Part shown: positions 2,596 through 19,992 of the stretch, in pieces
Layout: each line of letters begins with the position of its first letter
How positions within the stretch are numbered: position 1 is the first letter of the stretch
Assembly (NCBI GenBank): GCA_020060565.1
Contig: JAGVAE010000002.1
Location: forward strand, 307,270 to 371,269
Length of the DNA: 64,000 bases
Direction: 5' to 3'
DNA from: Candidatus Woesebacteria bacterium
Lineage (GTDB): Bacteria > Patescibacteriota > Microgenomatia > UBA8517
Program-made: the position numbers and the translations under genes
The notes under the pieces: generated by a model
What the model was told of the DNA's origin: nothing
The model's input: only the letters and a program-made list of their open reading frames with translations
Databases searched by the model: none

Positions 2596-3222
2596 ATGGT
2601 TAAATTTGTTTATTTTGATGTTGGTGGAACTGTGATCAAAGATTTTAGCGGAACCAATAATTGGGATAATCTTAAAAAAGAAATTGGTATAAAAGATGAT
2701 CAATATGAAAGATTTGATCTTCTTTTTGATAAACATCTAGAGATTAACACTACACGGGAGGTAGATACCCTAAAACCATTAATAGAAAAAGAATTCGGTG
2801 TTAAATTTGGCAAAAATTACTCCTTGCTTATAAATGGTTTTGTAAATCGTTTTGAAACAAATAAATCCATTTGGTCAGTAGTTAAGGAAATACAAAAAAC
2901 CTCCAAAGTTGGACTATTAACCAATATGTATCCAGGAATGTTTGAAGCTATCAAAAAAAGGAAATTGATTCCCGATATTAATTGGGATGAAATAATCGAT
3001 TCAAGTATTGTGGCTCTTCAAAAGCCAGATTCTGATATCTATAAACTTGCTCAAAATAAAAGCGGTGTTAATGGCGGAGAAATATTGTTTGTCGACAATG
3101 TTCAAGAGAATATTGATACAGCACAAAAGTTTGGCTGGAAAACTTTTCTATATAATCCAAAAGAGTCTGTTCTATCTAGTAAAAATTTGTTAGAATACTT
3201 CCACTTATTAAATGAAAAATAA
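2596..3222 (+). CDS. HAD-superfamily hydrolase (haloacid dehalogenase-like phosphatase).
   Basis: Motif I 'YFDVGGTV' (DxDGT-like) near the N-terminus, and a C-terminal '[18 protein letters not shown]' motif III region. Confidence 0.65.
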
Positions 3223-3709
3223 AAGTTTATATATAACAATCTTTCTAGTAGTACTTGTTGCCGTTGGTGGATATTTTGTTTTTAAGATTCCTTCACCAGT
3301 TATTAATCAACAATTACAAGAAGAGACTCTTTCTGATAATATAGAGAGTGTCGATACAAGTACTTTGGGAGTTGAGACAACTATGAATGATCAATTAGAA
3401 ATTGTAGATGAAGTATTAGGAACTGGGATAGAAGCTGTTGCCGGAAAAAGTGTAACAGTTAATTATTCAGGAACTCTTACAGATGGAACAAAATTTGATA
3501 GTTCTTATGATAGAAATGAACCATTCGTTTTTAATCTAGGTGCGGGTGAAGTTATTGTGGGATGGGATCAGGGAGTAGTTGGTATGAAAGTTGGAGGAAA
3601 GAGAAAATTAGTTATTCCCCCATCTTTGGGTTATGGATCAGCTGATTTAGGGGTGATTCCTCCAAACTCAACACTTGTTTTTGAGATAGAGCTTCTGAAA
3701 GTTGATTAA
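3212..3709 (+). CDS. FKBP-type peptidyl-prolyl cis-trans isomerase, membrane-anchored.
   Basis: N-terminal transmembrane helix, plus the canonical FKBP core '[62 protein letters not shown]'. Confidence 0.85.
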
Positions 3710-3714
3710 TAAGG

Positions 3715-4815
3715 GTGCTAAATAAATTTTTTAAATCAAAAGTGGGTAATGTTCCTCTGCCAGTATTTTTCCCTGATGCTACTCGTGCAGTAGTTAAATC
3801 TATTGACACATCAGATCTTGAAGAAACCAATACACCCGGAATTTTGGTTAACACATTTCATCTTTGGCAGGAATTGGGAGTGGATGTTTTAAAGAAGTTT
3901 GGGGGAATACGGGAGTTTATGAACTACCATGGAGCTGTAATTTCAGACTCTGGGGGATTTCAGGTAATGTCTGTTATTAAGTCAAAAAATATTAAAGGTA
4001 AAATTACCGATGAAGGAGCTGTTTTTTATCCTTCTAAGAATAAAAAGAAGATATTAACTCCGGAAAAATCAATTGAATTTCAGATGAATTTAAAGACAGA
4101 TATGGTGGTTGTTTTAGATGACTTTACAGATCCAGCCTCAACCTATGATGATGCAAAAATATCAGTGGAAAGAACGCTTTCTTGGGCAAAAAGATCAAAA
4201 GTTGAATTTGAAAAGATTTGTAAAGAAAAGAAATTGGGAGATGATAGACCTTATCTTCTTGGCGTGGTTCAGGGTGGAAAATATCAAGACTTAAGAGAAT
4301 ACTGTACAAAGGAGCTTGTGAGTATTGGTTTTGATGGATTGGGATATGGTGGTTGGCCAATAGATGAAGGGGGAAATTTTGATTACGACTCTGCCAAGTC
4401 GATTGCTGACAACACCCCCTCAGAATATTTCTTATATGGACTAGGGGTAGGTAAACCCGATGAAATTTTAGGTTGTGCAAAATTGGGATTTAATATTTTT
4501 GATTGCGTTCTTCCTACTAGAGACGCACGGCATGGAAGACTATATATTTATAATTTTGATTCAATTGACGAAATAAATTTAAATATTCCCAATTTTTATT
4601 CTTTCTACACACCAACAAGAGAGAAGTACTATAAAGATGAAACTCCTATAAGCACCGCATGTGATTGTTTGTTATGTAAAAAATATTCAAAAGCATACTT
4701 GGCACATCTTTTTCGCATTGGAGATTTTACTGCAGGACGCCTTGCAACAATCCACAATTTACGTTTTTACTCGTTATTGATGGAGAAGATCAGAACTACT
4801 ATTGACAAAACATAA
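3715..4815 (+). CDS. tgt: Queuine tRNA-ribosyltransferase (tRNA-guanine transglycosylase).
   Basis: Hallmarks 'DSGGFQ', 'VVQGG', 'LPTRDARHGRLY', and the Zn site 'CDCLLC...H'. The length of 366 aa is typical. Confidence 0.85.
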   Translation: MLNKFFKSKVGNVPLPVFFPDATRAVVKSIDTSDLEETNTPGILVNTFHLWQELGVDVLKKFGGIREFMNYHGAVISDSGGFQVMSVIKSKNIKGKITDEGAVFYPSKNKKKILTPEKSIEFQMNLKTDMVVVLDDFTDPASTYDDAKISVERTLSWAKRSKVEFEKICKEKKLGDDRPYLLGVVQGGKYQDLREYCTKELVSIGFDGLGYGGWPIDEGGNFDYDSAKSIADNTPSEYFLYGLGVGKPDEILGCAKLGFNIFDCVLPTRDARHGRLYIYNFDSIDEINLNIPNFYSFYTPTREKYYKDETPISTACDCLLCKKYSKAYLAHLFRIGDFTAGRLATIHNLRFYSLLMEKIRTTIDKT

Positions 4816-5548: not shown

Positions 5549-6010
5549 ATGCCCGATTTAAGTCAGACATTGTTTGAAACTTTCAATTTAAGTTTGGGTA
5601 AGATTTCTATCCCTGTTCCATATTGGCAAGCAGCAGCCATAGTTGCTCTAATTTTTTTTCTGATACTGCTTTTAGCAAAATTTCGTGAGCATTCTATTCA
5701 CTGGTCGTTAAAAGGTGGAGTATTTGGAATATTTTTTGGATTTCTGTTGGCCTTGATTTTGGAAGGATTTCTTCTAATTGGAGGTAAGACTGTACTAACT
5801 GAAGCTTTGGGTTGGAAAAATCCACCAACACCAATTGCGCACTTACTGGACGCAGGAAGGTCTGAACTTATTAATGTATTGGGTATTAAAACTGAAATAC
5901 CAACTTCATATGCGAAGGAAAATGTTTCAGTTCAGGATGCAATGGAAGTTATCCAGAGTTTGAATCCAAGTGATATTACCAAAGTCAAAAACATCCTTTG
6001 TTCTCCTTAG
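5549..6010 (+). CDS. Hypothetical small membrane protein with two or three transmembrane helices.
   Basis: ATG start, hydrophobic helices, no recognisable domain. Confidence 0.35.
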   Translation: MPDLSQTLFETFNLSLGKISIPVPYWQAAAIVALIFFLILLLAKFREHSIHWSLKGGVFGIFFGFLLALILEGFLLIGGKTVLTEALGWKNPPTPIAHLLDAGRSELINVLGIKTEIPTSYAKENVSVQDAMEVIQSLNPSDITKVKNILCSP

Positions 6011-6028
6011 TTTGGTATACTTCAAGGA

Positions 6029-7057
6029 ATGGAAGAATTAATAGATAGACTGAATAAGCTTAAGATATCTGCTGATATTGAAGGAAAGAAAGAAAGGATC
6101 AAAATTCTTGAGGGAGAATCAACCAAAGCTAATCTTTGGGATGATCCCAATTATGCAAGACGGGTAACCCAGGAGTTGAGTGATTTAAATAAAGAAGTAG
6201 AAGAAATTCAAGAACTTTCGGAGACTTTGGAAATCTTAACACAAGTCAATGATGAAAGCGAATTAAGAAAAGCTGAAAAAGCCCTAGAAAGATTGGAAAT
6301 GACGACTTATCTTTCTGGTAAGTATGATGTTAAAAATGCAATAGTTTCAATTCACGCAGGTCAGGGAGGAACGGAGGCTATGGATTGGGTCTCAATGCTA
6401 CTTCGTATGTATATGCGTTTTTGTGAAAGGAGAGAATGGAAGACGGAAACTTTTGAATATACTCCAGGGGAGGAAGCTGGGATTAAAAGTGTTATCTTTA
6501 ATGTTTCGGGAAGACATGCTTATGGTTATCTAAAAGGTGAAGCAGGAACCCATAGGCTTGTCAGGCAATCTCCATTTAATGCGGACAAATTAAGACAGAC
6601 CTCATTTGCGCTTGTGGAAGTCATGCCTGAGCTTGAAGAAACTGATGCTTCAGACATTGATATTAAAGATAGTGATTTGGATTGGCAATTTATTCACGCT
6701 GGAGGTCACGGGGGGCAAAATGTAAATAAAGTAGCAACTGCAGTACGCTTAACACATATTCCATCAGGAATAGTTATTACCGCCTCAACTGAAAGATTCC
6801 AAGAACAAAATAGGAAAATTGCCTTAAGTTTACTTCGAGGAAAACTTTGGCTGCGTGAACAAGAGATTGCCAAAGGACTTAAAAAGGATATAAAAGGGGA
6901 TTATCGTCCTGCTTCTTGGGGAAATCAGATCAGAAGTTATGTCCTCCATCCATATAAAATGGTAAAGGATTTGCGGACTGAAGTCGAAACAGGAAATACA
7001 GATGTAGTATTAGATGGGGGGATCGACGAATTTATTGATGCTGAGTTGAAAATGTAA
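6029..7057 (+). CDS. prfB: Peptide chain release factor 2, encoded as a single uninterrupted ORF with no +1 frameshift site.
   Basis: GGQ motif 'GGHGGQNVNKV', the RF2-specific 'SPF' tripeptide (RQSPFNADKLRQTSFA), and an intact N-terminus MEELIDRLNKL. Confidence 0.9.
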   Translation: MEELIDRLNKLKISADIEGKKERIKILEGESTKANLWDDPNYARRVTQELSDLNKEVEEIQELSETLEILTQVNDESELRKAEKALERLEMTTYLSGKYDVKNAIVSIHAGQGGTEAMDWVSMLLRMYMRFCERREWKTETFEYTPGEEAGIKSVIFNVSGRHAYGYLKGEAGTHRLVRQSPFNADKLRQTSFALVEVMPELEETDASDIDIKDSDLDWQFIHAGGHGGQNVNKVATAVRLTHIPSGIVITASTERFQEQNRKIALSLLRGKLWLREQEIAKGLKKDIKGDYRPASWGNQIRSYVLHPYKMVKDLRTEVETGNTDVVLDGGIDEFIDAELKM

Positions 7058-7100
7058 TTTTCGATTTGCGTTTTTGGCTTTTATAGTGTTATATTTGGTT

Positions 7101-7538
7101 ATGGAACCAATAAACCCCCAGCCAGTAGTAGGGCCTGTGCAGAATTTAAATACAAATAAAACCTGGATGTATATTGTTGGTGCTTTTCTTGTTGTTGTTT
7201 TGGGTGTGGGGGGTGGCTGGCTAATTTCTTCAAAAGTAATTAACAAAGGTCCTGTTGCAGCACCTGGTACAAAAGTGACTTCAACTGAAGCTGGGGTACT
7301 TGATGCCAATACCAAATATGATAATGCAACAGGAGTTATGAAAGAAGGAGGAACGGGGAATGAGGGAACACACCACCTTGATCGTGAAGGTGGAGTTGAT
7401 CAGACAGTTTATTTGACTTCAAGTGTGATTGACCTATCTAGTTTTAATGGTAAAAAGGTTCAGGTTTGGGGTCAAACATTAGCTTCAAAGAAAGCTGGAT
7501 GGCTGATGGATGTTGCTAAAGTACAAGTCATTCAGTAA
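7101..7538 (+). CDS. Hypothetical secreted or membrane-anchored protein. ATG at 7101; the track's TTG at 7074 is also possible.
   Basis: An N-terminal hydrophobic helix followed by a Gly/Thr-rich soluble region. No known domain. Confidence 0.35.
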   Translation: MEPINPQPVVGPVQNLNTNKTWMYIVGAFLVVVLGVGGGWLISSKVINKGPVAAPGTKVTSTEAGVLDANTKYDNATGVMKEGGTGNEGTHHLDREGGVDQTVYLTSSVIDLSSFNGKKVQVWGQTLASKKAGWLMDVAKVQVIQ

Positions 7539-7574: not shown

Positions 7575-8243
7575 ATGTCTCACGAAAAGAAAAATATTAT
7601 TCATTTTGAGAAGGTAACAAAGAAATTTGGTGGTATGGCTGCGGTTGATAATGTTTCATTTGATGTAGAAGATGGTGAATTTGTTTTTATCACAGGTCCT
7701 TCAGGGGCAGGAAAAACTACACTTCTTAAGTTAATTCTGGGAGAAATATCCTCAAGCAGCGGGGAAGTGATAGTTGATGGTGTGAATGTTGAAAATTTAA
7801 AAGAAAAAGAATTACCCTACTTTCGCCAAAAAATAGGTATAGTATTTCAAGATTTTAAGGTACTACCACAGCGTTCAGTTTCTGAAAATATAGAAGTTGC
7901 TCTAGCTGTAACAGGAGTTGATGAAGCCCAATGGCAGGAAAGAATAAAACACGTTCTTAAACTGGTGGGACTTTCTCGTCAGGAGGATCTTTTTCCATCT
8001 CAACTTTCAGGAGGAGAACTGCAAAGAGTTTCTTTAGCACGTGCTTTGAGTGTTAATCCCAAGCTTCTTTTGGCAGATGAGCCGATGGGAAACTTAGATT
8101 GGGAAACATCTGATTCAATAATGCAATTATTTGAAAAAATTAACAAAGAAGGTAAAACCATAGTGATGGCGACACATAACTTGGAAATTGTTAAGAAATA
8201 TAAAAAGCGTGAGATACATATAGTAGGTGGTAAAATAAATTAA
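7575..8243 (+). CDS. ftsE: Cell-division ABC transporter ATP-binding protein FtsE.
   Basis: Walker A 'GPSGAGKTT', signature 'LSGGELQRVSLARAL', Walker B 'LLLADEP'. About 222 aa counted from ATG 7575. Confidence 0.85.
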   Translation: MSHEKKNIIHFEKVTKKFGGMAAVDNVSFDVEDGEFVFITGPSGAGKTTLLKLILGEISSSSGEVIVDGVNVENLKEKELPYFRQKIGIVFQDFKVLPQRSVSENIEVALAVTGVDEAQWQERIKHVLKLVGLSRQEDLFPSQLSGGELQRVSLARALSVNPKLLLADEPMGNLDWETSDSIMQLFEKINKEGKTIVMATHNLEIVKKYKKREIHIVGGKIN

Positions 8244-8273: not shown

Positions 8274-9191
8274 ATGAAAAGTATTCATCTTAAAACTGCA
8301 CTGGGATGTATGAGAAGGTCTCCGTTTCAGGCTATGGCTGCTACATTTGTTTTGAGCCTTACCTTTTTTGTCGCCACTTTAGTATCTGTTCTTGTTTATT
8401 CTTCATCTCAGCTTCTAAATTATTTTGAGTCTCGTCCTCAGGTGATTGCTTTTATTAAAGATGGGACTACCGATACCCAAGTTGCTGATTTACAACATAA
8501 GCTGGAAAGCGAGGAAAAAATTGAAAATGTTAAGTATGTAAGTAAAGAGGAAGCTCTCTCTATTTATAAAAAAGCTACTAGCGATAATCCACTTTTGGGA
8601 CAGCTTGTAAGTCCATCAATTTTTCCTGCTTCCCTAGAATTTTCTGTAAACGACTTATCCTTTGCCCAAGATATTATTGATCAAATAAAGAGCGAGGATA
8701 TAGTTGATTCTGTTGGTTTTACCGCTGCAGTTGGTGGGGAGGCTAATTTAAACGATGTTGTCAATAGACTTAAAACCATAACTACATATGTTAGATTGGG
8801 AGGTGGAATATTTACAGGAGTTTTGGCTCTGGCTTCATTTGTTGTTCTTCTTATAACAATAACAATGAGAATGGCAACACGCAAAGAAGAAATTGAGATA
8901 CTAAATCTTATTGGGGCAACCAAAGCATTTATAAGAAGTCCTATCATGCTTGAGGCTCTTATATATGCCGTAGTTGGTGTTTTTGTTGGTTGGATACTGT
9001 GCTTTATTACTGTTTTATATTCGGCTCCTGGCTTGGTTTCTTATTTTGGTGAAATTCCAGTTCTTCCAAAAGATACGCTTGGGATTCTTACAATCTTTGG
9101 AATTATTTTGGGAGTAGAGCTTTTGGGCGGTCTTATTTTGGCAATTTCAGGAAGTTTACTTGCAATTTCAAGAGTCAGAAAATCAAGATGA
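8274..9191 (+). CDS. ftsX: Cell-division permease-like protein FtsX.
   Basis: N-terminal 'LKTALGCMRRSPFQAMAATFV', a large extracellular loop, three C-terminal transmembrane helices, and a position directly downstream of ftsE. Confidence 0.8.
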   Translation: MKSIHLKTALGCMRRSPFQAMAATFVLSLTFFVATLVSVLVYSSSQLLNYFESRPQVIAFIKDGTTDTQVADLQHKLESEEKIENVKYVSKEEALSIYKKATSDNPLLGQLVSPSIFPASLEFSVNDLSFAQDIIDQIKSEDIVDSVGFTAAVGGEANLNDVVNRLKTITTYVRLGGGIFTGVLALASFVVLLITITMRMATRKEEIEILNLIGATKAFIRSPIMLEALIYAVVGVFVGWILCFITVLYSAPGLVSYFGEIPVLPKDTLGILTIFGIILGVELLGGLILAISGSLLAISRVRKSR

Positions 9192-10351
9192 AAGAATATG
9201 GAAAAAAATTATTATTTCTCCTATTTGTCCTAATACTTCTTTTTGGGACATTTTCTATTGTTAAGGCGCAAGCTTGTAATAACGCAGAAGAATGTCAGAA
9301 ACTTATTGATGAATATTCAGACCAGATAACAATACTTCAAGGGCAGGCAAAAACTTTGAAAAATCAAATTGCTCAATTTGATGCTCAAATTAAGTTGACG
9401 ACATTAAAGATTAATCAAACTCAGGCTCAGATTAACCTTTTAGGCGGACGTATAGATCAACTTGAAATTTCTTTAAATGACTTAACCAAAGCTTTTTCTT
9501 CGCGCGTAGTAGAAACATATAAACTTTCAAAGTTTGAGAATAGCCTTTTTTTCTTCCTTGGCGCAGATGATATAAACGATGCAACTCAAAGATTTCATTA
9601 TTTGAAAAAAATAGAAGAAGAAGATAGAAATTTATTAAATAAACTTGAGATAGCACAAACTACATATAAGGGAGAAAAAACTGATCAGGAGGAACTACAA
9701 AAAAAACTTAAGGATCAACAAGCAAAACTAAATGCTCAAAAAACCGCAAAGAATAGCCTGCTGGCTGCAACTAAGAATGATGAGTCTAAATATCAGTCAC
9801 TTCTTTCTCAAGCAAAAGCACAGCTTTCTGCATTTAATAGATTCGTTGCTGGTCAGGGTGGAGCGTCAATTTTAAGTAATCAAACAAAATGTAGTTCTTG
9901 GGGTTGTTATTACAATCAAAGAGATTCTCAATGGGGGAATATTGGAATGGGTGGTTCATCGTATTCAATGGCTAGTTATGGATGTTTAGTCACCTCGGTA
10001 TCTATGATAGCCAGCCACTATAACAAAAATATTAAACCTGGAGATATTGCAGTCAACTCAGAAGCTTTTGTACCAAGCACTGGCTACTTGTATCACGATT
10101 TTAATGTAAATGGTGTCAAAGTAACAATTAACAGCGCCTCTAGGTCACTATTAGATAGTGAACTTTCAGCAGGAAGACCTGTTATCGCGGGATTGTATTC
10201 AGGTCCAGATCACTTCATAGTAATACTTAGGAAAGATGGAGATAAATATATAATGAACGATCCATTTATGGAAAATGGGGATGAGAAATCTCTAACTGAT
10301 AAATATAGCGTCTCAGATATTACAAGTCTTCGTTTGGTAAGTTTTAATTAA
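9188..10351 (+). CDS. Coiled-coil protein with a C-terminal papain-like (Peptidase_C39_2/CHAP-like) cysteine peptidase domain. Putative FtsEX-activated peptidoglycan hydrolase, analogous to EnvC/PcsB/RipC.
   Basis: Signal/transmembrane helix, about 200 aa of heptad-rich coiled coil (QAKTLKNQIAQFDAQIKLTTLKINQTQAQINLL...), then 'YSMASYGCLVTSVSMIASHY' (a Cys nucleophile block like C39_2 'CGPTSLAMVLSYYG') and a downstream 'DHFIVIL' His. Its start overlaps the ftsX stop (ATGA). Confidence 0.55.
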   Translation: MKEYGKKLLFLLFVLILLFGTFSIVKAQACNNAEECQKLIDEYSDQITILQGQAKTLKNQIAQFDAQIKLTTLKINQTQAQINLLGGRIDQLEISLNDLTKAFSSRVVETYKLSKFENSLFFFLGADDINDATQRFHYLKKIEEEDRNLLNKLEIAQTTYKGEKTDQEELQKKLKDQQAKLNAQKTAKNSLLAATKNDESKYQSLLSQAKAQLSAFNRFVAGQGGASILSNQTKCSSWGCYYNQRDSQWGNIGMGGSSYSMASYGCLVTSVSMIASHYNKNIKPGDIAVNSEAFVPSTGYLYHDFNVNGVKVTINSASRSLLDSELSAGRPVIAGLYSGPDHFIVILRKDGDKYIMNDPFMENGDEKSLTDKYSVSDITSLRLVSFN

Positions 10352-10395
10352 CATTTCTCTCCAAAAGTAGTAATGTAAGATAACTATTAGTTTCA

Positions 10396-11199
10396 ATGAT
10401 TCGAATAATTAAAGTCCTGTTGAGTTTAATATTAATTGGATTATTTAACCCTTTGTCGGTTTCAAGAGTTTTTGCACAAGTAGTTATTAATGAATTTGTA
10501 ATAAACGGAAGCCCTGAATGGGTAGAATTTTATAATGCGAGTTCTTCTGCTGATTATATAAAGAATTATTATATAGACGATGACATTAGTTTTATGGATG
10601 ATTCCGGAACCGGAACAAGAAAATCATTATCGTTACTGAATGTTTCAAATCCTACATATCCATTTATTGAAACTTCGTCTTTTTTCAACAATCCTGGGGA
10701 TTGGGTTGTATTATTTGACCAAAGTGGAAATATTTTAGATCAATATCAATATACATCTGACCCAGGAAAAGATATATCAATTGGAAGGTACCCTGATAAT
10801 GCAGGAACATTTTCAGTTTTGGCATATTCGACAAAAGCTGATGGAAATTCTGCGCCCTCTACCCCTGTTCCCACTTCCACTTCTCAGCCCACTAATACTC
10901 CAACTCCAACCTCAACTCCAATTTCTACCCCAATTCCAACAAAAACTCCCATCCCAACTCCAACCAAAGCACCAACAATGACACCAACTCCAACCATAAG
11001 CCCTACCGGGGAATCATCTACTGCTTCAGGAGACGTTTTAGGATCTGAAGCTGTCATAGATAGTCCTTCACCTGTCTCTGAAAATAAAAATATAGTTATT
11101 GCTATTGTTTTTGTAGGATTGGGAACAATACTGATTGGAGGATCTATTTATTGGGTCATTAGAACTTCCAAGTCAGCCAAACCCCAGAATGATATATAA
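10396..11199 (+). CDS. Lamin-tail-domain (LTD) surface protein with a Pro/Thr-rich linker and a C-terminal transmembrane anchor.
   Basis: Signal peptide, then 'VVINEFVINGSPEWVEFYNAS', the LTD signature. The linker is PTSTSQPTNTPTPTSTPISTPIPTKTPIPTPTKAPT, followed by a C-terminal helix IVIAIVFVGLGTILIGG. Confidence 0.5.
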   Translation: MIRIIKVLLSLILIGLFNPLSVSRVFAQVVINEFVINGSPEWVEFYNASSSADYIKNYYIDDDISFMDDSGTGTRKSLSLLNVSNPTYPFIETSSFFNNPGDWVVLFDQSGNILDQYQYTSDPGKDISIGRYPDNAGTFSVLAYSTKADGNSAPSTPVPTSTSQPTNTPTPTSTPISTPIPTKTPIPTPTKAPTMTPTPTISPTGESSTASGDVLGSEAVIDSPSPVSENKNIVIAIVFVGLGTILIGGSIYWVIRTSKSAKPQNDI

Positions 11200-12720: not shown

Positions 12721-13635
12721 ATGTTCGTTCTTAAATTACTTGTCCATTATTTCATACCTCACGAGAGCAATAATCAGAAGGCAAAAGTTTTACATCCCAA
12801 AAGCTTAGGTTTAATTGCTATTTTTCTTATTGCTTTTCAATTTGTTGTTAGTTTGGGAAATACTTCTTTTCCTCAAGTATTGGGATATGCAGCTAATATT
12901 GTACCAAGTGAGGTTGTTCGTCAAACCAATGCCCAAAGGTCAGCGGTCGGACTTTCACCCCTTACTGAAAACTCTGATCTTAGTTCAGCTGCCATAGCCA
13001 AAGGAAATGATATGTTGGCAAAAGGGTATTGGGCACATTTTGCCCCAGATGGAACAAGTCCCTGGACATTCTTTACCCAATTTGGATACAAGTATCAGTA
13101 TGCTGGAGAAAATTTGGCTCGGGATTTTTCGGATGTTTCAAGTGCAATAAATGCCTGGATGAGCTCACCGACACATAAGGAAAATATATTAAATCCACAT
13201 TATAAAGAAATTGGTATAGGGGTAGTTGAAGGTTCTTTGGCTGGAGCAAATACCACAATAATAGTACAGTTTTTTGGAACTTCTCTTTCAGGTTCCCCTT
13301 CAGTCCCAGTTGCCAAAGCAAAAGAAACAATGATTGTTTCAAATGAGTCACCAAAACCGATTGCGCAAGTTTCGACTCCGGTTCCGTTACCTTTACAAAC
13401 TTCTGGAGTAGAAGCTGTAACTGGAGTAACTAAGTTTACAAGTTCTCCCTTCTCTTTTACTAAAAATTTGTCATTAGCGGTTGTTGGTATTCTTCTTTTG
13501 GTTTTATCTATTGACTTGGCAGTAGTTAGACGTAAAAGAATTGCTAGGATTGGGGGGCGTACTTTAGCGCATATCAGCTATCTTGGAATGATTTTGGCCG
13601 TTATACTAATATTAAAAGCAGGACAAATTATTTGA
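12721..13635 (+). CDS. CAP/SCP/PR1-domain (YkwD-like) protein with transmembrane segments at both the N- and C-terminus.
   Basis: 'VVRQTNAQRSAVGLSPLTENSDLSSAAIAKGNDMLAKGYWAHFAPDG...GENLARDF...SSPTHKENILNPHYKEIGIGV', the CAP-domain signature blocks. Confidence 0.6.
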   Translation: MFVLKLLVHYFIPHESNNQKAKVLHPKSLGLIAIFLIAFQFVVSLGNTSFPQVLGYAANIVPSEVVRQTNAQRSAVGLSPLTENSDLSSAAIAKGNDMLAKGYWAHFAPDGTSPWTFFTQFGYKYQYAGENLARDFSDVSSAINAWMSSPTHKENILNPHYKEIGIGVVEGSLAGANTTIIVQFFGTSLSGSPSVPVAKAKETMIVSNESPKPIAQVSTPVPLPLQTSGVEAVTGVTKFTSSPFSFTKNLSLAVVGILLLVLSIDLAVVRRKRIARIGGRTLAHISYLGMILAVILILKAGQII

Positions 13636-13916: not shown

Positions 13917-14807
13917 ATGCAAAAAATTACAAAAGCAGTAATCCCAGCAGCCGGTTTTGGTACAAGATTTCTTCCTCAAACCAAAGCTATGCCAAAAGAA
14001 ATGCTTCCTATTGTTGATAAACCTATTATTCAATACATTGTGGAGGAATTGGTGGACGTTGGTATCAAAGATATCATTATTGTTACAGGCTATCACAAAC
14101 GCACCATTGAAGATCACTTTGATTACCCTAACCTTGATTTAGTTGAGAATTTAAAAATGGGAGGGGAAAAGAAACGCCCAATGCTTGAAGAAGTTGAAAA
14201 AATTGCCAATATGGCAAATTTTGTATACGTTAGACAAAAAGGTCCATACGGAAATGGTACACCACTTCTAAATGTAAAAAGTATGATTGGAAACGAACCC
14301 TTTATTTATACATGGAGTGATGATTTTATAGTGGCAAAACCTTCAAGATTTAAACAACTATTGTCAGCGTATGAAAAGTATGGTTGTAGCTGTTTATCTG
14401 GAGTAAAAGCTAATAAAGATGAAGATTATATAAGATATGGTTTTGTTGGAGGAGACAAGCTTGAACCTGGGATAATTGATGCAAAGGTTCTTGTTGAAAA
14501 ACCAGGCCGTGAGAATGCTCCGTCAGATCTAGCAACTGTTTCAGGGTTTTTATTTACTCCAGACATTTTTAATTATTTGGATAAAGTCCTTGACAATCTG
14601 GAGTCTGGAAAAGAGTTTTATTACAATGATGCTCTAAAGCTTATGCTTGAGGATGGTAAGCGTGTTTTGGGAGTCGAAATTGCCGATGGGAAATATTATG
14701 ACACAGGAAATAAAATCGAATATCTTAAAACCGTTGTAGAATTTGCCCTTAACCATAAAGAGCTTAATGGTAAATTTAGAGAGTATCTTAAAAGCCTTCA
14801 AATATGA
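13917..14807 (+). CDS. galU: UTP--glucose-1-phosphate uridylyltransferase.
   Basis: 'AVIPAAGFGTRFLPQTKAMPKEMLPIVDKPIIQYIVEE' is the classical GalU N-terminus. Confidence 0.8.
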   Translation: MQKITKAVIPAAGFGTRFLPQTKAMPKEMLPIVDKPIIQYIVEELVDVGIKDIIIVTGYHKRTIEDHFDYPNLDLVENLKMGGEKKRPMLEEVEKIANMANFVYVRQKGPYGNGTPLLNVKSMIGNEPFIYTWSDDFIVAKPSRFKQLLSAYEKYGCSCLSGVKANKDEDYIRYGFVGGDKLEPGIIDAKVLVEKPGRENAPSDLATVSGFLFTPDIFNYLDKVLDNLESGKEFYYNDALKLMLEDGKRVLGVEIADGKYYDTGNKIEYLKTVVEFALNHKELNGKFREYLKSLQI

Positions 14808-16723
14808 AACTACTTGTAACCGGCGCCGCGGGATTTATAGGGGCAAACTTTGTACACTATTGGGTTGATAAATACCCAAAGGATGAGATAAGGGTAATTG
14901 ATGCATTAACTTATGCGGGCAATATCGAAAATCTTGCACCTGTTATTAAAAAAATAGATTTTATTGAAGCAGATATTAATGATAGATCAAAAGTTGCGGG
15001 TGCAATGAAAGGGGTGGACGCTGTAATTCATTTTGCTGCAGAAAGCCATGTAGACAGAAGTGTCTTTGATCCCTCAAGGTACTGGCAGACTAATGTTCAT
15101 GGAACTGTTACCCTTCTTGAAGAAGCACATAAACTAGGAATAAACCGCTTCCATCACATTTCAACAGATGAAGTTTACGGTGAGCTTCCACTCCTTTCAG
15201 ATGAAAAATTTAGTGAAAAAACTCCGTATGCTCCCAGACCCGACAACTTATATGCATTAAGTAAAGCTGAAGCTGACAAATTGGTTTTAGAGTTTTATAA
15301 AAAGACTGATATGTATATTACAATTTCAAATTGCTCGAATAATTACGGGCCATATCAATTTCCTGAGAAGTTTATTCCTATCGTTGTCACTAATTTGATT
15401 GATGGTATTCAAATTCCGATTCATGGGGATGGTAGAAATGTTCGTGATTGGATTCATACCAAAGATCATGCAAACGCAATTGATCTAATTCTTCAAAAAG
15501 GTAAAAAGGGAGAAACGTATCTTGTTGGGTCAAATAATGACAGGGATAATAACTACATAGCAGAAAAAATGGTTTCACTTTACGGCGAGGATCCAAATAC
15601 CATTCGCCACGTACCAGATAGACACAGCAATGACAGAAGATACGCAATTGATGCCACAAAAATTATTCAGGAATTAGGTTGGAAGCCAGAGGTTGATAGG
15701 GATAATTTTGATGACGGATTGAAAGAAACAATTGATTGGTATAGAGATAATCAGGATTGGTGGAGACCGCTTCTAAAGAGACGCGCAGTAATTTCAGATG
15801 AAAATAAATCGGTAAGTGCTTTTATCACATTGAACCGCGAGACTGGCAAAACTAAATTTATTTTTGGAAAACTTGAGGCCAAGGAAAAAATAACCCTTCC
15901 CAAAAATGACCTTAAGGAACATTTTGTAGAAGCAAATATAGTAAGGCATGAGATGGTTATCAAAAATTTGGAATCCAAAAAGTGGTATCAAGACAGTTCA
16001 GATGAAATAAAAGACGAGATTAAAGCACTTGCCATGAATCCTTCAACTTTTGGTTATGCTGAGGATCTATCGTCTCATGAGGAAAAAATTGGAAAAGATA
16101 CATTACTTAAACTAATCAAAATTGAGCATGCTCCCAATGAATATGGAATATATGGAATAGGTACATGGTTTGTAGTAGAGAATGAAAAAGGAGACAAAAG
16201 GTCTGAAGGTTATTATTCATGGGGATGGGGTCCAAAGAGCGGTGCTAAGCTTTTGGTTCTAGTCAGAAGAAATGGAGAAATTACCCATTTTGCATTTCAA
16301 AGAGAAGGAAAGTTCCCAACAGGATCTATTGAATATAACCTAGCAGGAGGGTTCCCAAAGTTAAATGAAAGTGTTTTAAATTTTATTTTAAGATCATTAA
16401 AGAAAGATTTGGGATTGGATGTACAAAAAGAAAACATCACTCTAAATGAAATTGTAAGTCTTGGTCGTGTAGCACCTGACTCAGGAATGACAAACAATCA
16501 CCCAAATTTGTATGCCGTAATAGTTGATTTTGAGGATGATGTTTATCCCGATGTTACCGAGGGGGTCAAGTTTGAAGAGAATGAGGGAATAGTTCTCTGG
16601 CCAATAAGTGAAACATCTGAGATTGTTAGTAAATGTGATGACGCCTACTTCTTAGCGGCAATGGCAAGACTTGATTTATCTGGGATATATACTATAAATT
16701 TGACTGAGGATAGAAAGGACTAA
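14804..16723 (+). CDS. rfbB: dTDP-glucose 4,6-dehydratase (RmlB, residues about 1-325) fused to a roughly 310-aa C-terminal extension that ends in a degenerate Nudix-hydrolase-like box.
   Basis: RmlB: 'LLVTGAAGFIGANF', 'HFAAESHVDRS', 'YALSKAEADKL', and a terminal 'IDWYRDNQDWWRPL'. In the extension, 'GGFPKLNESVLNFILRSLKKDLGL' fits Gx5Ex7R[ES]uxEExGu with substitutions. Confidence 0.7.
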   Translation: MKLLVTGAAGFIGANFVHYWVDKYPKDEIRVIDALTYAGNIENLAPVIKKIDFIEADINDRSKVAGAMKGVDAVIHFAAESHVDRSVFDPSRYWQTNVHGTVTLLEEAHKLGINRFHHISTDEVYGELPLLSDEKFSEKTPYAPRPDNLYALSKAEADKLVLEFYKKTDMYITISNCSNNYGPYQFPEKFIPIVVTNLIDGIQIPIHGDGRNVRDWIHTKDHANAIDLILQKGKKGETYLVGSNNDRDNNYIAEKMVSLYGEDPNTIRHVPDRHSNDRRYAIDATKIIQELGWKPEVDRDNFDDGLKETIDWYRDNQDWWRPLLKRRAVISDENKSVSAFITLNRETGKTKFIFGKLEAKEKITLPKNDLKEHFVEANIVRHEMVIKNLESKKWYQDSSDEIKDEIKALAMNPSTFGYAEDLSSHEEKIGKDTLLKLIKIEHAPNEYGIYGIGTWFVVENEKGDKRSEGYYSWGWGPKSGAKLLVLVRRNGEITHFAFQREGKFPTGSIEYNLAGGFPKLNESVLNFILRSLKKDLGLDVQKENITLNEIVSLGRVAPDSGMTNNHPNLYAVIVDFEDDVYPDVTEGVKFEENEGIVLWPISETSEIVSKCDDAYFLAAMARLDLSGIYTINLTEDRKD

Positions 16724-16728
16724 TAAGT

Positions 16729-17313
16729 ATGATGAGATTTGATCCCTTCAAACACGTTAAAAAAACTGGAATTGACGGAGTTGTTTTAATTGAACGACCA
16801 ATTTTGGGAGATGCTCGTGGTTTTCTTCACGAACCGTACAACAAGGAAGAACTAAAAGTTGCAACGGGGGTAGAGTTTAACCCAGTTCAATGGACACATG
16901 CGTATATAAAACCTGGGGTAATAAAAGCAGTTCATTCTGAAGATTGGAATAAATTAATCTATCCCATAACTGGAATTTTGTATGCCCCAATTTGTGATTT
17001 AAGGCCTGATAGTCCCACATTTGGAAAAGTGGAGTATATAAAAATAGACAATACTAAAGAAGATTCCCTCCGCCAGGCGTTGTTTCTACCTTCAGGAGGA
17101 ATAGGAAACTCCATTTGTACGTTGGGAACTGAAATGATGCATTATTTTTATTTAATTGATGAATATTGGGACGATGCAAAGGCTAGAGGGATTGCCTGGA
17201 ATGATCCAGACTTAAATATAAAATGGCCTATCGAAAGTCCAATTCTTTCAGAACGCGATCAAAATAATCCAACCTTAAGAGAGGTTTTTCCAGAGAAATT
17301 TACTTCTAAATGA
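16729..17313 (+). CDS. rfbC: dTDP-4-dehydrorhamnose 3,5-epimerase-like (RmlC cupin).
   Basis: Size of 194 aa, its position between rmlB and rmlD, and 'GVVLIERPILGDARGFLHEPYN'. Confidence 0.55.
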   Translation: MMRFDPFKHVKKTGIDGVVLIERPILGDARGFLHEPYNKEELKVATGVEFNPVQWTHAYIKPGVIKAVHSEDWNKLIYPITGILYAPICDLRPDSPTFGKVEYIKIDNTKEDSLRQALFLPSGGIGNSICTLGTEMMHYFYLIDEYWDDAKARGIAWNDPDLNIKWPIESPILSERDQNNPTLREVFPEKFTSK

Positions 17314-18209
17314 TGAAAAAAGTATTGGCAATTGGCGGCAGTGGAATGGTTGGTTCAAGGTTTTGTGAACTAGCTTCTTCTAAGTTTGATATAGTTTCCA
17401 TCGATGAGAAAACATTGGACATTACAGACAGAAATGCAGTTGAAAAATACTTTGGAGAAAATAAATTTGATTCAGTTGTAAATTTCTCAGCATATACTAA
17501 TGTCAGTGAGGGTGAAAACGATAGAGGAAACGAAGAAGGTTTAGCTTGGAAATTAAACGTCTTGGCCCCAGGTTATTTAGCTGAAGCTTGTTTAAAAAAT
17601 AATATTTTCCTAGTGCATATCTCTACAGATATGGTGTTCTCTGGAGGCAAAAGTGATCCAGGACCGTACTCTGAAGATCATCTAATTCCAGAAGACAGTT
17701 CTGTTGTGACCTGGTATGGATATACAAAAGGGTTAGGGGAAAAAGCTGTGAAAAATATTCTTGGAGAAAAAGCCTGTATTCTTAGATTGATTTATCCATT
17801 CAGGTCACATTTTGAAGGAAAACTTGATTACCTGAGGAAACCCATCCAATTGTACAAAGAAGATAAATTGTACCCTCTGTTTACTGATCAAAAACTTACC
17901 ACAATATTTGTAGATGATGCTTGTAGAATTTTAGAAAGAATTCTTGAGAAAGGTCAAACGGGGATTTTACATGCGAGCTGTACTGACCTAGCTTCTCCTT
18001 ACGATCATGTTTTATATGTCTTAGAAAAAATCGAAGGAAAAGGTATTGAATTAAAGACTGGATTAATAGAGGAGTTTTTAAAAACAGCATCGTCTGTTGT
18101 ACGCTATCCACAATTTGGAGGTTTGAAAACAGAAAGGACACAAGAGGTGTTGGGAATGAAGTTCAGGACTTGGCGACAGATGGTTGATTCTTTTGTCTCC
18201 AATCTCTAA
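17310..18209 (+). CDS. rfbD: dTDP-4-dehydrorhamnose reductase-like (RmlD).
   Basis: 'MMKKVLAIGGSGMVGSRF' Rossmann motif, about 299 aa, and 'VHISTDMVFSG' typical of RmlD. Confidence 0.6.
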   Translation: MMKKVLAIGGSGMVGSRFCELASSKFDIVSIDEKTLDITDRNAVEKYFGENKFDSVVNFSAYTNVSEGENDRGNEEGLAWKLNVLAPGYLAEACLKNNIFLVHISTDMVFSGGKSDPGPYSEDHLIPEDSSVVTWYGYTKGLGEKAVKNILGEKACILRLIYPFRSHFEGKLDYLRKPIQLYKEDKLYPLFTDQKLTTIFVDDACRILERILEKGQTGILHASCTDLASPYDHVLYVLEKIEGKGIELKTGLIEEFLKTASSVVRYPQFGGLKTERTQEVLGMKFRTWRQMVDSFVSNL

Positions 18210-18813
18210 TCTCTTTGTGATTTCCACCTAAAAGTACACTTGGAACTTTATGCCCTTTGTAATTTTCGGGTCTGGTGTATTGAGGATACTCTAGGTATCC
18301 AGGTTCCTTGTGGGATTCCACTGCCGAGGACTCATCTTTTCCCAAAACTCCTGGAATAAGGCGTATTACCGAGTCAACCAGTACCATTGCAGGAATTTCT
18401 CCTCCCGTAAGAACATAATCTCCAATAGAAATAATCTCATCAACTAGGTTTTCATGAACTCGATGATCAACACCTTCATAATGTCCTGCAATTAAAATTA
18501 GATGGTTATACTTTGAAAGCTCAACCGCTTTTTGCTGTACAAATCTTTTTCCTGTAGCGTCAAGGAGGATTACCCTTGACGATTTAGTTCGTAGGTCTTT
18601 TAAGGCATTATCAACAATATCAACACGAAGTAGCATCCCAGGACCTCCTCCATACGGTTTATCATCAACACTGCGGCGTTCTCCTTCCCCCCATTTCCTT
18701 AAATCATGCACTCTAACTTTAATGAGATCCCTGCTCTCGGCACGCTTAATAATGGAAGCATCAAAGGGTCCATCAAACATGTCTGGGAAGAGAGTGATTA
18801 TGTCAATTTCCAT
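18163..18813 (-). CDS. trmD: tRNA (guanine37-N1)-methyltransferase.
   Basis: 'IDIITLFPDMFDGPFDASIIKRA' and 'GHYEGVDHRVHE' (SPOUT knot). Length 216 aa. Confidence 0.9.
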   Translation of the reverse strand: MEIDIITLFPDMFDGPFDASIIKRAESRDLIKVRVHDLRKWGEGERRSVDDKPYGGGPGMLLRVDIVDNALKDLRTKSSRVILLDATGKRFVQQKAVELSKYNHLILIAGHYEGVDHRVHENLVDEIISIGDYVLTGGEIPAMVLVDSVIRLIPGVLGKDESSAVESHKEPGYLEYPQYTRPENYKGHKVPSVLLGGNHKEIRDWRQKNQPSVAKS

Positions 18814-18834
18814 ATGTGTATTGTATCATTAAGT

Positions 18835-19992
18835 ATGGACAAAATAGTCATTGTTATGCCTGCTTATAATGAGGCAGAAAATATTAAGCTCATGATTACC
18901 GAGCTTTTTAATGAGGTTTTTCCCAAGGTTGAGAACGTCGAAATGCACCTATTGGTGGTTGATGATTATTCTCCAGACGGAACTGGGGATATAGTTAAAA
19001 GCTTTCAGGATAAATACAAGAATTTGCATATGCTCCAAAAGCAAAAAGAAGGATTGGGTTGGGCATACATCAGGGGTTTCCAGTATGCAATTGATAAATT
19101 AAATGCAGATGCAGTGATGGAAATGGATGCCGATTTTCAACACCCTCCGCGCTTCGTGAAACCAATGGTTGAAGCCTATTTGAATGGTGCCGATTATTGT
19201 ATAGGAAGTAGATATATAAAAGGAGGATCTGTTCCAAGGCAGTGGGCACTATCCAGGAAAGCCATCAGTTATTTTGGAAATTTGTTTATTAGGCTTGTTC
19301 TTCTTAAGCCTTCCATTCATGATTTAACAACAGGATTTAGGTTGGCTAGAGTTAAGGGGATTTTAGATAAGATTGATTTAAATAATTTAATGGAGCCTAC
19401 AAGGTTTGCCTACAAAGTAGATTTACTTTATCAGTGTATTAAAAACTCTAAAAAAACAGTTGAGGTTCCATTGGAGTTTGCTGCAAGAACAAAAGAAGTT
19501 TCAAAGTTTAATCCCAAAGAAATGACCTCAACTTTCAAGGTTGCAATTATTCTGGGGATTAAAGATAAGATTAGATTTATTAAATTTGGTGTTGTTGGCT
19601 TTGTTGGTTTTGCAGTTAATTATTTGGGATTGGAGCTTTTAAAACGCTTGGGACTTTCTACTTATTTTGCAACACTTTTTGCAACTGAGGCCGCAATCGT
19701 TTCAAATTTTATACTAAACAATATTTGGACATTTAAAGACAAAATAATAACTTCTTTTAAAGATTTAATAGTTCAGTTTTTGAAGTTTAATTTTTCATCT
19801 CTTTTTGCTGTAATTGTACAGCCATTAATTGTTGCAGGTGTAGCTAAACTATTTGGAGATACATCACTGATTCGTTTTGGGGCTCTCATATTTGCCTTAA
19901 TTTTTGTTATCGTTCCCTATAACTACGTTGTTTACAATCTTTTTATCTGGCGAACTTGGAAAATCCCCAAATTTTTCAAGAGAGATAGATAA
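18835..19992 (+). CDS. GT2 polyprenyl-phosphate sugar synthase (DPM1/GtrB/CsbB-like) fused to a C-terminal GtrA-like flippase domain. Start at ATG 18835 rather than the track's 18706.
   Basis: 'IVIVMPAYNEAENI', 'VDDYSPDGT', and 'MDADFQHPP' (the DxD region). The C-terminal 'KFGVVGFVGFAVNYLGLELLKRLGLSTYFATLFATEAAIVSNFILNNIWTF' matches the GtrA family. Confidence 0.8.
   Translation: MDKIVIVMPAYNEAENIKLMITELFNEVFPKVENVEMHLLVVDDYSPDGTGDIVKSFQDKYKNLHMLQKQKEGLGWAYIRGFQYAIDKLNADAVMEMDADFQHPPRFVKPMVEAYLNGADYCIGSRYIKGGSVPRQWALSRKAISYFGNLFIRLVLLKPSIHDLTTGFRLARVKGILDKIDLNNLMEPTRFAYKVDLLYQCIKNSKKTVEVPLEFAARTKEVSKFNPKEMTSTFKVAIILGIKDKIRFIKFGVVGFVGFAVNYLGLELLKRLGLSTYFATLFATEAAIVSNFILNNIWTFKDKIITSFKDLIVQFLKFNFSSLFAVIVQPLIVAGVAKLFGDTSLIRFGALIFALIFVIVPYNYVVYNLFIWRTWKIPKFFKRDR

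Follow-up and report, generated by a model that had tools for sequence, protein, structure and literature searches.

The fused rmlB gene and its parts

We analysed a stretch of 64,000 nucleotides (nt) of DNA (the window) from a Candidatus Woesebacteria bacterium, a member of a group of very small bacteria not yet cultured (assembly GCA_020060565.1, contig JAGVAE010000002.1, positions 307,270 to 371,269 of the forward strand), in which the gene for the dTDP-glucose 4,6-dehydratase RmlB runs on into a second domain. The open reading frame (ORF) at 14804-16723 on the plus strand is one frame of 639 amino acids (aa) with zero internal stops, whose start codon shares the sequence ATGA with the stop codon of the upstream gene. 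From N- to C-terminus the product comprises RmlB, a linker, a helical extension and a NUDT5-like degenerate Nudix module, and in public records it is named 'dTDP-glucose 4,6-dehydratase' alone.

The RmlB domain (aa 1-325; 14804-15778, +) matched TIGR01181, the dTDP-glucose 4,6-dehydratase equivalog, with 392 bits against a cut-off of 365.1, residues 2-323 covering positions 1-321 of the 321 in the profile. Pfam matches on the fused protein were to SDR/epimerase families alone, all within residues 1-300. A preliminary description of this DNA had placed the end of RmlB near its usual length with 310 further residues behind it, in agreement with the end of the TIGR01181 match at residue 323 and with the RmlB C-terminus, DWWRPLL, at residues 318-324. 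The catalytic residues are intact: the GxxGxxG motif (aa 7-13), T121-D122-E123 and Y150-xxx-K154 were invariant in 19 of 19 fused genes. Judged by motifs and profile, the RmlB half is predicted to be a catalytically intact dTDP-glucose 4,6-dehydratase of the extended SDR type, although the nucleotide moiety of its substrate (dTDP or UDP) is uncertain because the nucleotidyltransferase encoded upstream is GalU-like.

The approximately 310 residues that follow are called the tail here and are numbered as protein residue minus 329. The linker (aa 326-366; 15779-15901, +) carries a predicted beta-hairpin, SAFITLNRETGKTKFIFG (aa 338-355), with strands predicted at tail residues 10-15 and 20-25; its predicted local distance difference test score (pLDDT) in AlphaFold was 49-70. 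This segment is conserved across the fused members and absent from relatives of the tail that occur without RmlB (standalone relatives), so it belongs to the fused clade only. Behind it lies a family-specific helical N-terminal extension (aa 367-423; 15902-16072, +), modelled by AlphaFold as helices at tail residues 38-94 with a pLDDT of 94-98 and lying outside the match to NUDT5. The standalone relatives have this extension in common with the tail, with the motif W[FY]..S...Q..L..LP...GFL.DLA.RP; its near-invariant Trp is W65 of the tail, in KKWYQ.

The remainder forms a two-subdomain module resembling the nucleoside diphosphate (NDP)-sugar pyrophosphatases by Foldseek (aa 429-629; 16088-16690, +), with an N-terminal beta-sheet followed by a Nudix core. 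Four segments stand out within it. A GPKSGAK loop (tail 147-153; 16229-16249, +) was invariant in 33/33 fused members, its G147, G151 and K153 being conserved in standalone members too. The degenerate Nudix box, GGFPKLNESVLNFILRSLKKDLGL, occupies aa 515-538 (16346-16417, +), and an invariant PDSGMTNN loop (tail 229-236; 16475-16498, +) aligns with MDPGLSN of NUDT5. Lastly, a FEENEG loop (tail 261-266; 16571-16588, +) contains E262, which is nearly invariant across the family and falls within one residue of NUDT5 E166 in the alignment, the register being uncertain by one.

Conservation of the fusion

A scan with a pattern for the tail, which covered one genome per GTDB species, located it in 18 species-level genomes, two of them closed (CP011214.1 and CP066686.1). 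Where the carrier genomes were informatively titled they were Candidatus Woesebacteria, Microgenomates or Patescibacteria. Each of the 18 encodes RmlB and the tail in an uninterrupted frame of 627-647 aa, and P0014, from a divergent lineage, is another intact fusion of 633 aa. With the same continuous ORF in all of these, the fusion reported in the preliminary description proved genuine, with no frameshift or chimera at the junction. The order galE, CAP-domain gene, galU-like gene, rmlB::tail, rmlC, rmlD and trmD (on the opposite strand) was likewise kept in 18/18 genomes.

Four metagenome contigs (L001-L004) have RmlB and the tail called as separate genes. The breaks coincide with a 31-nt local duplication in L001, whose scaffold also contains Ns, and with an 11-T homopolymer in L003, while L002 is a contig of 2.9x coverage and L004 a contig full of stops; in each of the four, the tail frame runs upstream through the RmlB C-terminus (DWWRPLL). 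The duplication in L001 (ANAN16-1 scaffold_1126, ~7870-7900) spans ~31 nt at the RmlB C-terminus, reads GLKETVNW and then LEKTVEWYK with a shift of frame, and is probably an assembly artefact. As to whether orthologues are split or fused, a point left open by the preliminary description, they were always fused in Woesebacteria and occur as a separate gene beside rmlB elsewhere.

The ratio of nonsynonymous to synonymous substitution rates (dN/dS) was 0.03-0.09 for the Nudix-like part and 0.02-0.06 for RmlB, these values being given for the estimable genome pairs, as dS was saturated in most pairs. Because dN/dS is low and both the continuous fusion and the synteny are conserved, the tail is a selected, functional part of the protein under strong purifying selection.

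Six metagenome-assembled genomes titled 'uncultured Gammaproteobacteria' (L006, L009, L010, L017, L018 and L022) carry the same Woesebacteria-type locus with full synteny, and their fusion proteins are 58-80% identical; these labels are almost certainly wrong.

Fold and homology of the tail

The tail is blank to the usual profile libraries. Against Pfam it matched nothing at E≤10, PF00293 included, NCBIfam gave no Nudix match of its own above threshold, and direct sequence searches of Pfam, NCBIfam and the PDB with the tail or with a fused-clade profile returned sub-threshold Nudix hints alone. The fused relative P0014 reached 16.9 bits against PF00293, for which the gathering score is 21.1. 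Close homologues of the tail numbered 13 among 5.8 billion proteins, all of the fused clade.

An exhaustive profile search yielded 128 relatives of the tail, the non-fused ones being nearly all standalone proteins of ~250 aa that match tail positions ~78-322. The family outside the fused proteins amounts to about 100 standalone proteins, most of them with a canonical Nudix box. A Pfam NUDIX match (E≤0.01) was found in 17 of 54 relatives, with a best E-value of 1e-10, and the standalone proteins P0018, P0027, P0124 and P0130 pass the PF00293 gathering score. The tail aligned pairwise with Pfam-positive P0018 at 31% identity over ~255 aa (E=3e-36). In the PDB, the family profile matched human NUDT5, an ADP-sugar pyrophosphatase, with E=7e-5 across the Nudix box and the D-x-G-x-S/T-N loop that follows it. 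A second protein search, this time with the family alignment, re-found mostly the fused clade.

An AlphaFold model of the tail was built from 69 family sequences, superseding a first model from 13 sequences with a pLDDT of 64, and reached a pLDDT of 87.7 and a predicted template modelling score (pTM) of 0.82. It shows a low-confidence linker with the hairpin (tail 1-36), the helical extension (38-94), and then a beta-sheet subdomain and a Nudix alpha/beta/alpha core, which together span tail residues ~100-300. A Foldseek search of the PDB gave 255 matches at E≤0.001, and all 50 of those listed were two-domain nucleoside-diphosphate-sugar pyrophosphatases: NUDT5 (E=7.4e-11), NudE, NudF/ADPRase from several species, a Bdellovibrio NDP-sugar hydrolase, a B. 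methanolicus Nudix protein and the E. coli GDP-mannose hydrolase YffH/NudK. The alignments ran over ~200 columns and covered whole targets of 170-205 aa, with target TM-scores of 0.59-0.74; Foldseek with the weaker first model agreed with these matches.

Since the confident model with its Foldseek matches concurs with transitive homology to PF00293-positive standalone relatives, the tail is a Nudix-fold module of the two-domain NDP-sugar pyrophosphatase branch (NUDT5/NudF/NudE/NudK). The Nudix alpha/beta/alpha sandwich expected in the preliminary description is accordingly present in a confident model, and of its proposal that the tail belongs to Nudix PF00293, the fold and the homology to Pfam-positive relatives stood while a Pfam hit for the tail itself did not appear. 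Its suggestion of a Gmm/NudD-like hydrolase fared worse: no match to NF011963/PRK15434 was obtained (E≤10) and the structural neighbours are NUDT5/NudK-like two-domain pyrophosphatases, so membership of Gmm/NudD was rejected.

Standalone relatives and their gene neighbourhoods

The standalone members that were looked up are all unnamed or called 'hypothetical protein'. Among loci with usable flanks, 7/12 independent loci were linked to rml or NDP-sugar genes, with L045 ambiguous, L036 a further weak case, and L024-26, L030, L037 and L043/44 unlinked; the contigs of P0017, P0018 and P0019 were too short for gene context. In L039, a contig of 896 kb, rmlB (462 bits) stands on one side of the family gene and rmlC-rmlD-rmlA (rmlA 482 bits) on the other. 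In L032 the family gene has rmlD (242 bits), an FdtA/WxcM-like gene and rmlB (427 bits) as its neighbours, and in L040 it follows rmlB (459 bits) and rmlA. Fragments of RmlB adjoin the family gene in L038 and L041, and L042 has an RmlC-like gene together with an ORF that, from the look of its sequence, is a candidate CDP-glucose 4,6-dehydratase.

The 411-kb contig L046 has a bona fide rmlB and, 66 nt downstream of it in the same orientation, a family member whose helix is partly degenerate (LEIKQEVGL); a second, canonical paralogue (REVKEETGR) and rmlC-rmlD-rmlA come after it within 7 kb. This arrangement is the split state of the fusion in the window. The tail and the standalone members make up a previously unannotated family that is usually found in rml/NDP-sugar clusters, and, because standalone members sit in such clusters and once directly downstream of rmlB, the Woesebacteria gene is a Rosetta-stone fusion of a functional partnership that already existed.

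Some features of these loci were noted in passing. The L046 paralogues are at 3377-4264 and 6001-7197, the canonical copy 2 kb beyond the degenerate one, and in P0016 (571 aa) the domain is tandemly duplicated within one protein; both cases may represent enzyme/pseudo-enzyme pairs. The FdtA/WxcM-like gene of L032 (7848-8264, -), between rmlD and rmlB, matched PF05523 with 95.8 bits, a dTDP-4-keto-6-deoxyglucose 3,4-ketoisomerase family, and because of this gene the cluster may make a sugar other than rhamnose. In L039 an unrelated Gmm-like Nudix gene (2633-3130, -; NF011963 35.5 bits, below cut-off) lies ~400 nt beyond rmlA.

Degeneration of the catalytic site

The Nudix box of the tail, GGFPKLNESVLNFILRSLKKDLGL, fits the relaxed pattern G-x5-E-x7-R-x-U-x-x-x-x-G-U and so keeps the G, E, R, U, G and U positions of the complete GX5EX7REUXEEXGU, from which it departs by RS in place of RE and KD in place of EE. 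The preliminary description had picked out this box, which lies at aa 515-538, and both replacements. Such a match is rare by chance: the relaxed pattern occurred in 0.05% of shuffled tails, and 0.01 occurrences were expected against 1 observed in the six-frame ORFs of the whole window.

In NUDT5 the Mg2+-binding carboxylates on the Nudix helix are E112 and E116, with E115, preceded by the acidic E93, and a catalytic base or metal ligand lies on a downstream loop (E166 in NUDT5, E162 in NudF). Residue equivalences were taken from the significant HMMER alignment of the family to NUDT5, and the register was checked by hhalign of the fused-clade alignment against the single NUDT5 sequence, which was not significant (E=0.13) and was used for register alone. 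The NUDT5 sequence used for hhalign agrees with the chain segments in the HMMER alignment. The equivalent pairs (tail = NUDT5) are K174=R84, N183=E93, G186/G187=A96/G97, E193=E103, R201=R111, S202=E112, K205=E115, D206=E116 and D230=D133, with E262 adjoining the NUDT5 E166 loop.

Residues at these positions were tallied across 109 standalone sequences and 33 fused ones, with some redundancy among the latter. At the E112-equivalent, Glu was present in 94/109 standalone and 0/33 fused members, the latter having Ser (26), Lys (6) or Asn (1). The E115-equivalent was Glu in 77/109 standalone members and in 3/33 fused ones, of which 25 have Lys. Glu occupied the E116-equivalent in 82/109 standalone members, the fused members having Asp (28), Glu (4) or Lys (1), and the E93-equivalent was Asp or Glu in 92/109 standalone members and acidic in 4/33 fused members, with Asn in 21 and Thr in 7. 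Conserved in both groups were G147, G151, K153, K174, F175, G186, G187, G225, D230, G232, T234, N235, N236, E262, P271 and D284; K149, P176, R226, W270 and D283 were invariant in the fused clade alone.

The deepest fused lineages (P0014, P0010/L020 and P0011), whose tails are 40-48% identical to that in the window, retain Asp at the E93-equivalent, and their 115/116 pair reads EE or DK. In the crown clade, which includes the window, the E93, E112, E115 and E116 positions have N/T, S, K and D. Loss of the metal ligands in the fused clade was stepwise, with the E112-equivalent gone in all fused lineages. The residues at the lost positions differ between fused lineages (S/K/N; K/D/E/R; D/E/K), and this variation is more in keeping with relaxed constraint on the metal site than with a new catalytic arrangement that has become fixed.

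The rhamnose operon in the window

The gene directly upstream of the fusion (13917-14807, +) encodes a nucleotidyltransferase that is GalU-like and not RmlA-like, with 258 bits to TIGR01099 (galU; cut-off 327) and ~40 bits to rmlA; it is probably translationally coupled to the fusion. An rmlC-like gene (16729-17313, +; TIGR01221 106 bits, below the cut-off of 156) begins 5 nt downstream of the fusion and is overlapped by ATGA by an rmlD-like gene (17310-18209, +; TIGR01214 135.5 bits, below the cut-off of 224). No RmlA-type gene was found within the 64-kb window, and the rhamnose pathway here may start from UDP-glucose or use a promiscuous nucleotidyltransferase.

In some genomes (L011-L016 and L022) an insert of 1-5.5 kb separates the fusion from rmlC; that of L013 includes a DUF3800 protein, an MFS transporter and two ORFs without a Pfam match. 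In 2/18 fused-clade genomes a separate Nudix gene sits between the fusion and rmlC, encoding in L016 (CP011214.1; 6987-7865, +) a protein of 292 aa with the canonical helix AKREAMEEAGI, the homologue being at 7160-7723 in L012. This protein is NudF/ADPRase-like over the box (PDB E=0.003), reaches 19.6 bits against Pfam NUDIX, below the 21.1 required, and showed no similarity by BLAST to the family of the tail.

Proposed function of the tail and alternatives

The preliminary description had left two roles for the tail side by side, that of a nucleotide-sugar hydrolase and that of a non-catalytic regulatory domain. The residue losses described above favour the second and disfavour an ordinary hydrolase. 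We propose, with a probability of about 0.45, that the tail is a non-hydrolytic nucleotide-sugar-binding domain acting on RmlB as a sensor or an assisting domain. Such a tail would no longer hydrolyse nucleotide-sugars efficiently but would bind them, the diphosphate being held by Lys and Arg residues (K174, K205 and the clade-specific K149 and R226) in place of metal. It would most likely sense an NDP-sugar of the pathway, for example the end product dTDP- or UDP-L-rhamnose, and thereby modulate RmlB. RmlA carries the classical feedback site for dTDP-rhamnose. Because the upstream nucleotidyltransferase is of the GalU type and no RmlA lies in the 64-kb window, RmlB would be the first committed step here, and that classical feedback site would be missing. 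The same binding function could alternatively serve the capture or hand-over of substrate or product. We infer nucleotide-sugar binding from the invariance of the presumed ligand-contact motifs and from the purifying selection on the domain.

Several points weigh against this proposal. The tail retains D206 of the EE pair, the first box Glu (E193) and E262, and both EE and the E93-equivalent Asp persist in the deepest fused lineages; because of these retained residues and less degenerate basal lineages, residual or Mn2+-dependent hydrolysis is possible. Gmm/NudD shows that a Nudix enzyme with an atypical box can still catalyse by another mechanism. Moreover, the residue equivalences come from sequence alignments, the HMMER one being significant for the family; the regulatory role and the ligand are putative; and it is in one clade only that the fusion goes together with a GalU-type nucleotidyltransferase.

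A bolder and distinctly doubtful extension of the sensor proposal takes in the whole family: the tail and its standalone relatives would form a Nudix family dedicated to rml, the canonical members being dTDP-sugar pyrophosphatases that control the dTDP-deoxyhexose pool, and the Woesebacteria copy, captured by RmlB, having become a pseudo-enzyme allosteric sensor of dTDP/UDP-rhamnose. If this were true, feedback control would have moved from the nucleotidyltransferase (RmlA elsewhere) to the dehydratase in users of a GalU-type enzyme.

Of the alternatives, the one that survives best, while still unlikely, is that the tail is still active as an NDP-sugar pyrophosphatase, or as a glycosyl hydrolase, through a metal site that is reduced or rearranged. 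In that case the fused protein would be bifunctional, making dTDP-4-keto-6-deoxyglucose and being able to destroy an NDP-sugar, as a valve or in house-cleaning like Gmm/NudD, NudK or AspP. The fold and the family, both of NDP-sugar pyrophosphatases, speak for it, as do the retention of E193, D206 and E262, the basal fused lineages with EE and the E93-equivalent Asp, the strong purifying selection on the domain, and the canonical-box standalone relatives in rml clusters, from which hydrolysis can be presumed ancestral in the family. However, the E112-equivalent is gone in 33/33 fused members, and the clade of the window also lacks the E115- and E93-equivalents, with Lys at two sites that is incompatible with Mg2+ coordination there. 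The replacement residues are not fixed within the fused clade, and the separate intact-box Nudix gene of L016 and L012 hints that hydrolysis, where needed, is supplied by another protein.

A purely structural tail that binds no ligand, and that alters the oligomerisation of RmlB or docks it to RmlC, RmlD or glycosyltransferases, is rather improbable. The clade-specific linker hairpin and the helical extension are compatible with such a role, as is the fact that RmlB and NUDT5-type Nudix proteins are both homodimers, the latter domain-swapped. Yet the invariant residues are pocket motifs shared with the canonical members (KF, GG, PD.GMTNN, GP.SGAK), which would be unexpected in a pure scaffold.

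We consider it more improbable still that the tail is a non-hydrolytic enzyme acting on the RmlB product, either in the manner of the 2,3-dehydratases EvaA, TylX3 and OleV or through other chemistry on dTDP-4-keto-6-deoxyglucose. EvaA-type enzymes do belong to the Nudix superfamily and take the RmlB product as substrate (PMC8987622), and E262, E263, D283 and D284 of the tail are conserved acidic positions that lie beyond the classical box. However, PF03559 (Hexose_dehydrat) was matched neither by the tail (E≤10) nor by any of 54 family members (0/54 at E≤0.01), neither family profile matches EvaA in the PDB, and EvaA is absent among the 50 Foldseek matches listed, all of them pyrophosphatases. 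The tail has a single Nudix module against the tandem pair in EvaA, and the operon goes on with rmlC and rmlD, without a 3-ketoreductase or aminotransferase for a dideoxy branch. An EvaA-like 2,3-dehydratase was rejected on the profile, PDB and Foldseek results.

Finally, an artefact, in which two genes were joined by sequencing, assembly or frameshift error or in which the tail is a decaying pseudogene, is practically untenable and was rejected, since the separate calls in L001-L004 come from errors inside RmlB or at the 31-nt duplication with the RmlB C-terminus always in the tail frame, the ORF is uninterrupted in 18 independent genomes including two closed chromosomes, and dN/dS is 0.03-0.09.

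Comparison with known systems

NUDT5, E. coli NudF/ADPRase, NudE, NudK/YffH and the Bdellovibrio hydrolase share with the tail the fold and the order of subdomains over ~200 residues. The NUDT5-type proteins and the tail also have in common the basic phosphate residue (K174/R84), the GG before the box, the Gly, Glu and Arg of the box and the D-x-G-x-[ST]-N loop. The tail differs from them in having no Pfam hit, an extra helical extension of ~55 aa, fusion to RmlB and an identity of 10-17%, and in having Ser, Lys, Asn or Thr at the E112, E115 and E93 equivalents.

Gmm/NudD (WcaH) is encoded beside gmd-fcl in the GDP-fucose/colanic acid cluster and has an atypical Nudix box. Its likeness to the present case is one of gene-cluster logic alone, a Nudix gene beside an NDP-hexose 4,6-dehydratase gene, as with the standalone relatives of the tail in rml clusters; unlike the tail, Gmm has one domain (~160 aa), belongs to another branch of the Nudix superfamily and is a separate active enzyme.

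The NadM-Nudix proteins, for example those of Francisella and Synechocystis (PDB 2qjt and 2r5w), resemble the fusion in placing a metabolic nucleotide enzyme N-terminal to an ADPRase-type Nudix domain, and they are among the sub-threshold direct matches of the tail (NF003791, E=0.048; 2qjt, E=0.31). They differ in partner enzyme and pathway. The Nudix box of NadM-Nudix is intact and the domain an active ADP-ribose pyrophosphatase.

Nudix folds also serve as non-catalytic ligand readers in TRPM2 NUDT9-H, NrtR and Bacteroides AraR. Like the tail, such readers have a Nudix fold with the hydrolase residues lost, often C-terminal to an effector. In MutY/MUTYH, a non-catalytic C-terminal Nudix domain gives the N-terminal catalytic core its ligand specificity (PMC9266487), which is a precedent for the proposed role of the tail. 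The effectors of the readers are a DNA glycosylase, an ion channel and transcription factors, and their ligands 8-oxoG, ADP-ribose and arabinose, whereas the function of the tail is here a predicted one. AraR (5bs6) was among the weak sequence matches of the family in the PDB.

EvaA-type proteins (PF03559) are of the Nudix superfamily and bind dTDP-4-keto-6-deoxyglucose, the product of RmlB, and in EvaA a remnant Nudix pocket B binds dTDP-rhamnose (PMC8987622). EvaA is unlike the tail in being a tandem double domain of ~470 aa from antibiotic dideoxysugar clusters, with no sequence likeness or top-ranked structural likeness to it.

Searches of the literature for RmlB-Nudix fusions, for Nudix proteins with dTDP-rhamnose or dTDP-glucose and for rhamnose in Woesebacteria returned, apart from a review of the dehydratases, nothing relevant and no paper that describes the fusion or a Nudix family linked to rml. 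The preliminary description knew of no such fusion either, and the public names are uninformative; both the RmlB-Nudix fusion and the rml-linked family that it reveals appear to be undescribed and unannotated. The kinds of arrangement are already known, namely Nudix-enzyme fusions (NadM-Nudix), Nudix genes in deoxyhexose clusters (gmm by gmd) and pseudo-Nudix sensor domains, and no established concept is overturned. A 310-aa region that is blank in Pfam and NCBIfam now has a structural and evolutionary assignment, and the fusion draws attention to a Nudix family that lacks annotation; it comprises ~100 clusters (50% identity), all 'hypothetical', and is physically tied to gene clusters for rhamnose and deoxyhexoses in several lineages. 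This suggests that nucleotide-sugar pools are controlled at a further level, so far unrecognised, in a way comparable to that of Gmm in GDP-fucose clusters. Its canonical, partly degenerate and fully degenerate boxes form a natural series from enzyme to probable pseudo-enzyme, usable for the study of how a Nudix hydrolase evolves into a ligand sensor and of envelope-sugar regulation in Patescibacteria, a group with minimal regulatory repertoires.

Other genes in the window

Downstream of the operon, an ORF for a GT2/GtrA-like glycosyltransferase (18706-19992, +) overlaps trmD (18163-18813, -) by ~100 nt; reading of the translation alone indicates that its true start is probably an internal Met near 18838, at MDKIVIVMPAYNE. 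The upstream genes in the window (9188-11199 and 12721-13635, +) include a secreted C39-like cysteine peptidase with a PcsB-type coiled coil, and the same region encodes the CAP-domain protein as well as a Lamin-Tail-Domain protein, which has a Pro/Thr-rich linker and is anchored to the membrane at its C-terminus. The CAP gene, syntenic in 18/18 genomes, also adjoins the standalone relative P0124 in L024.

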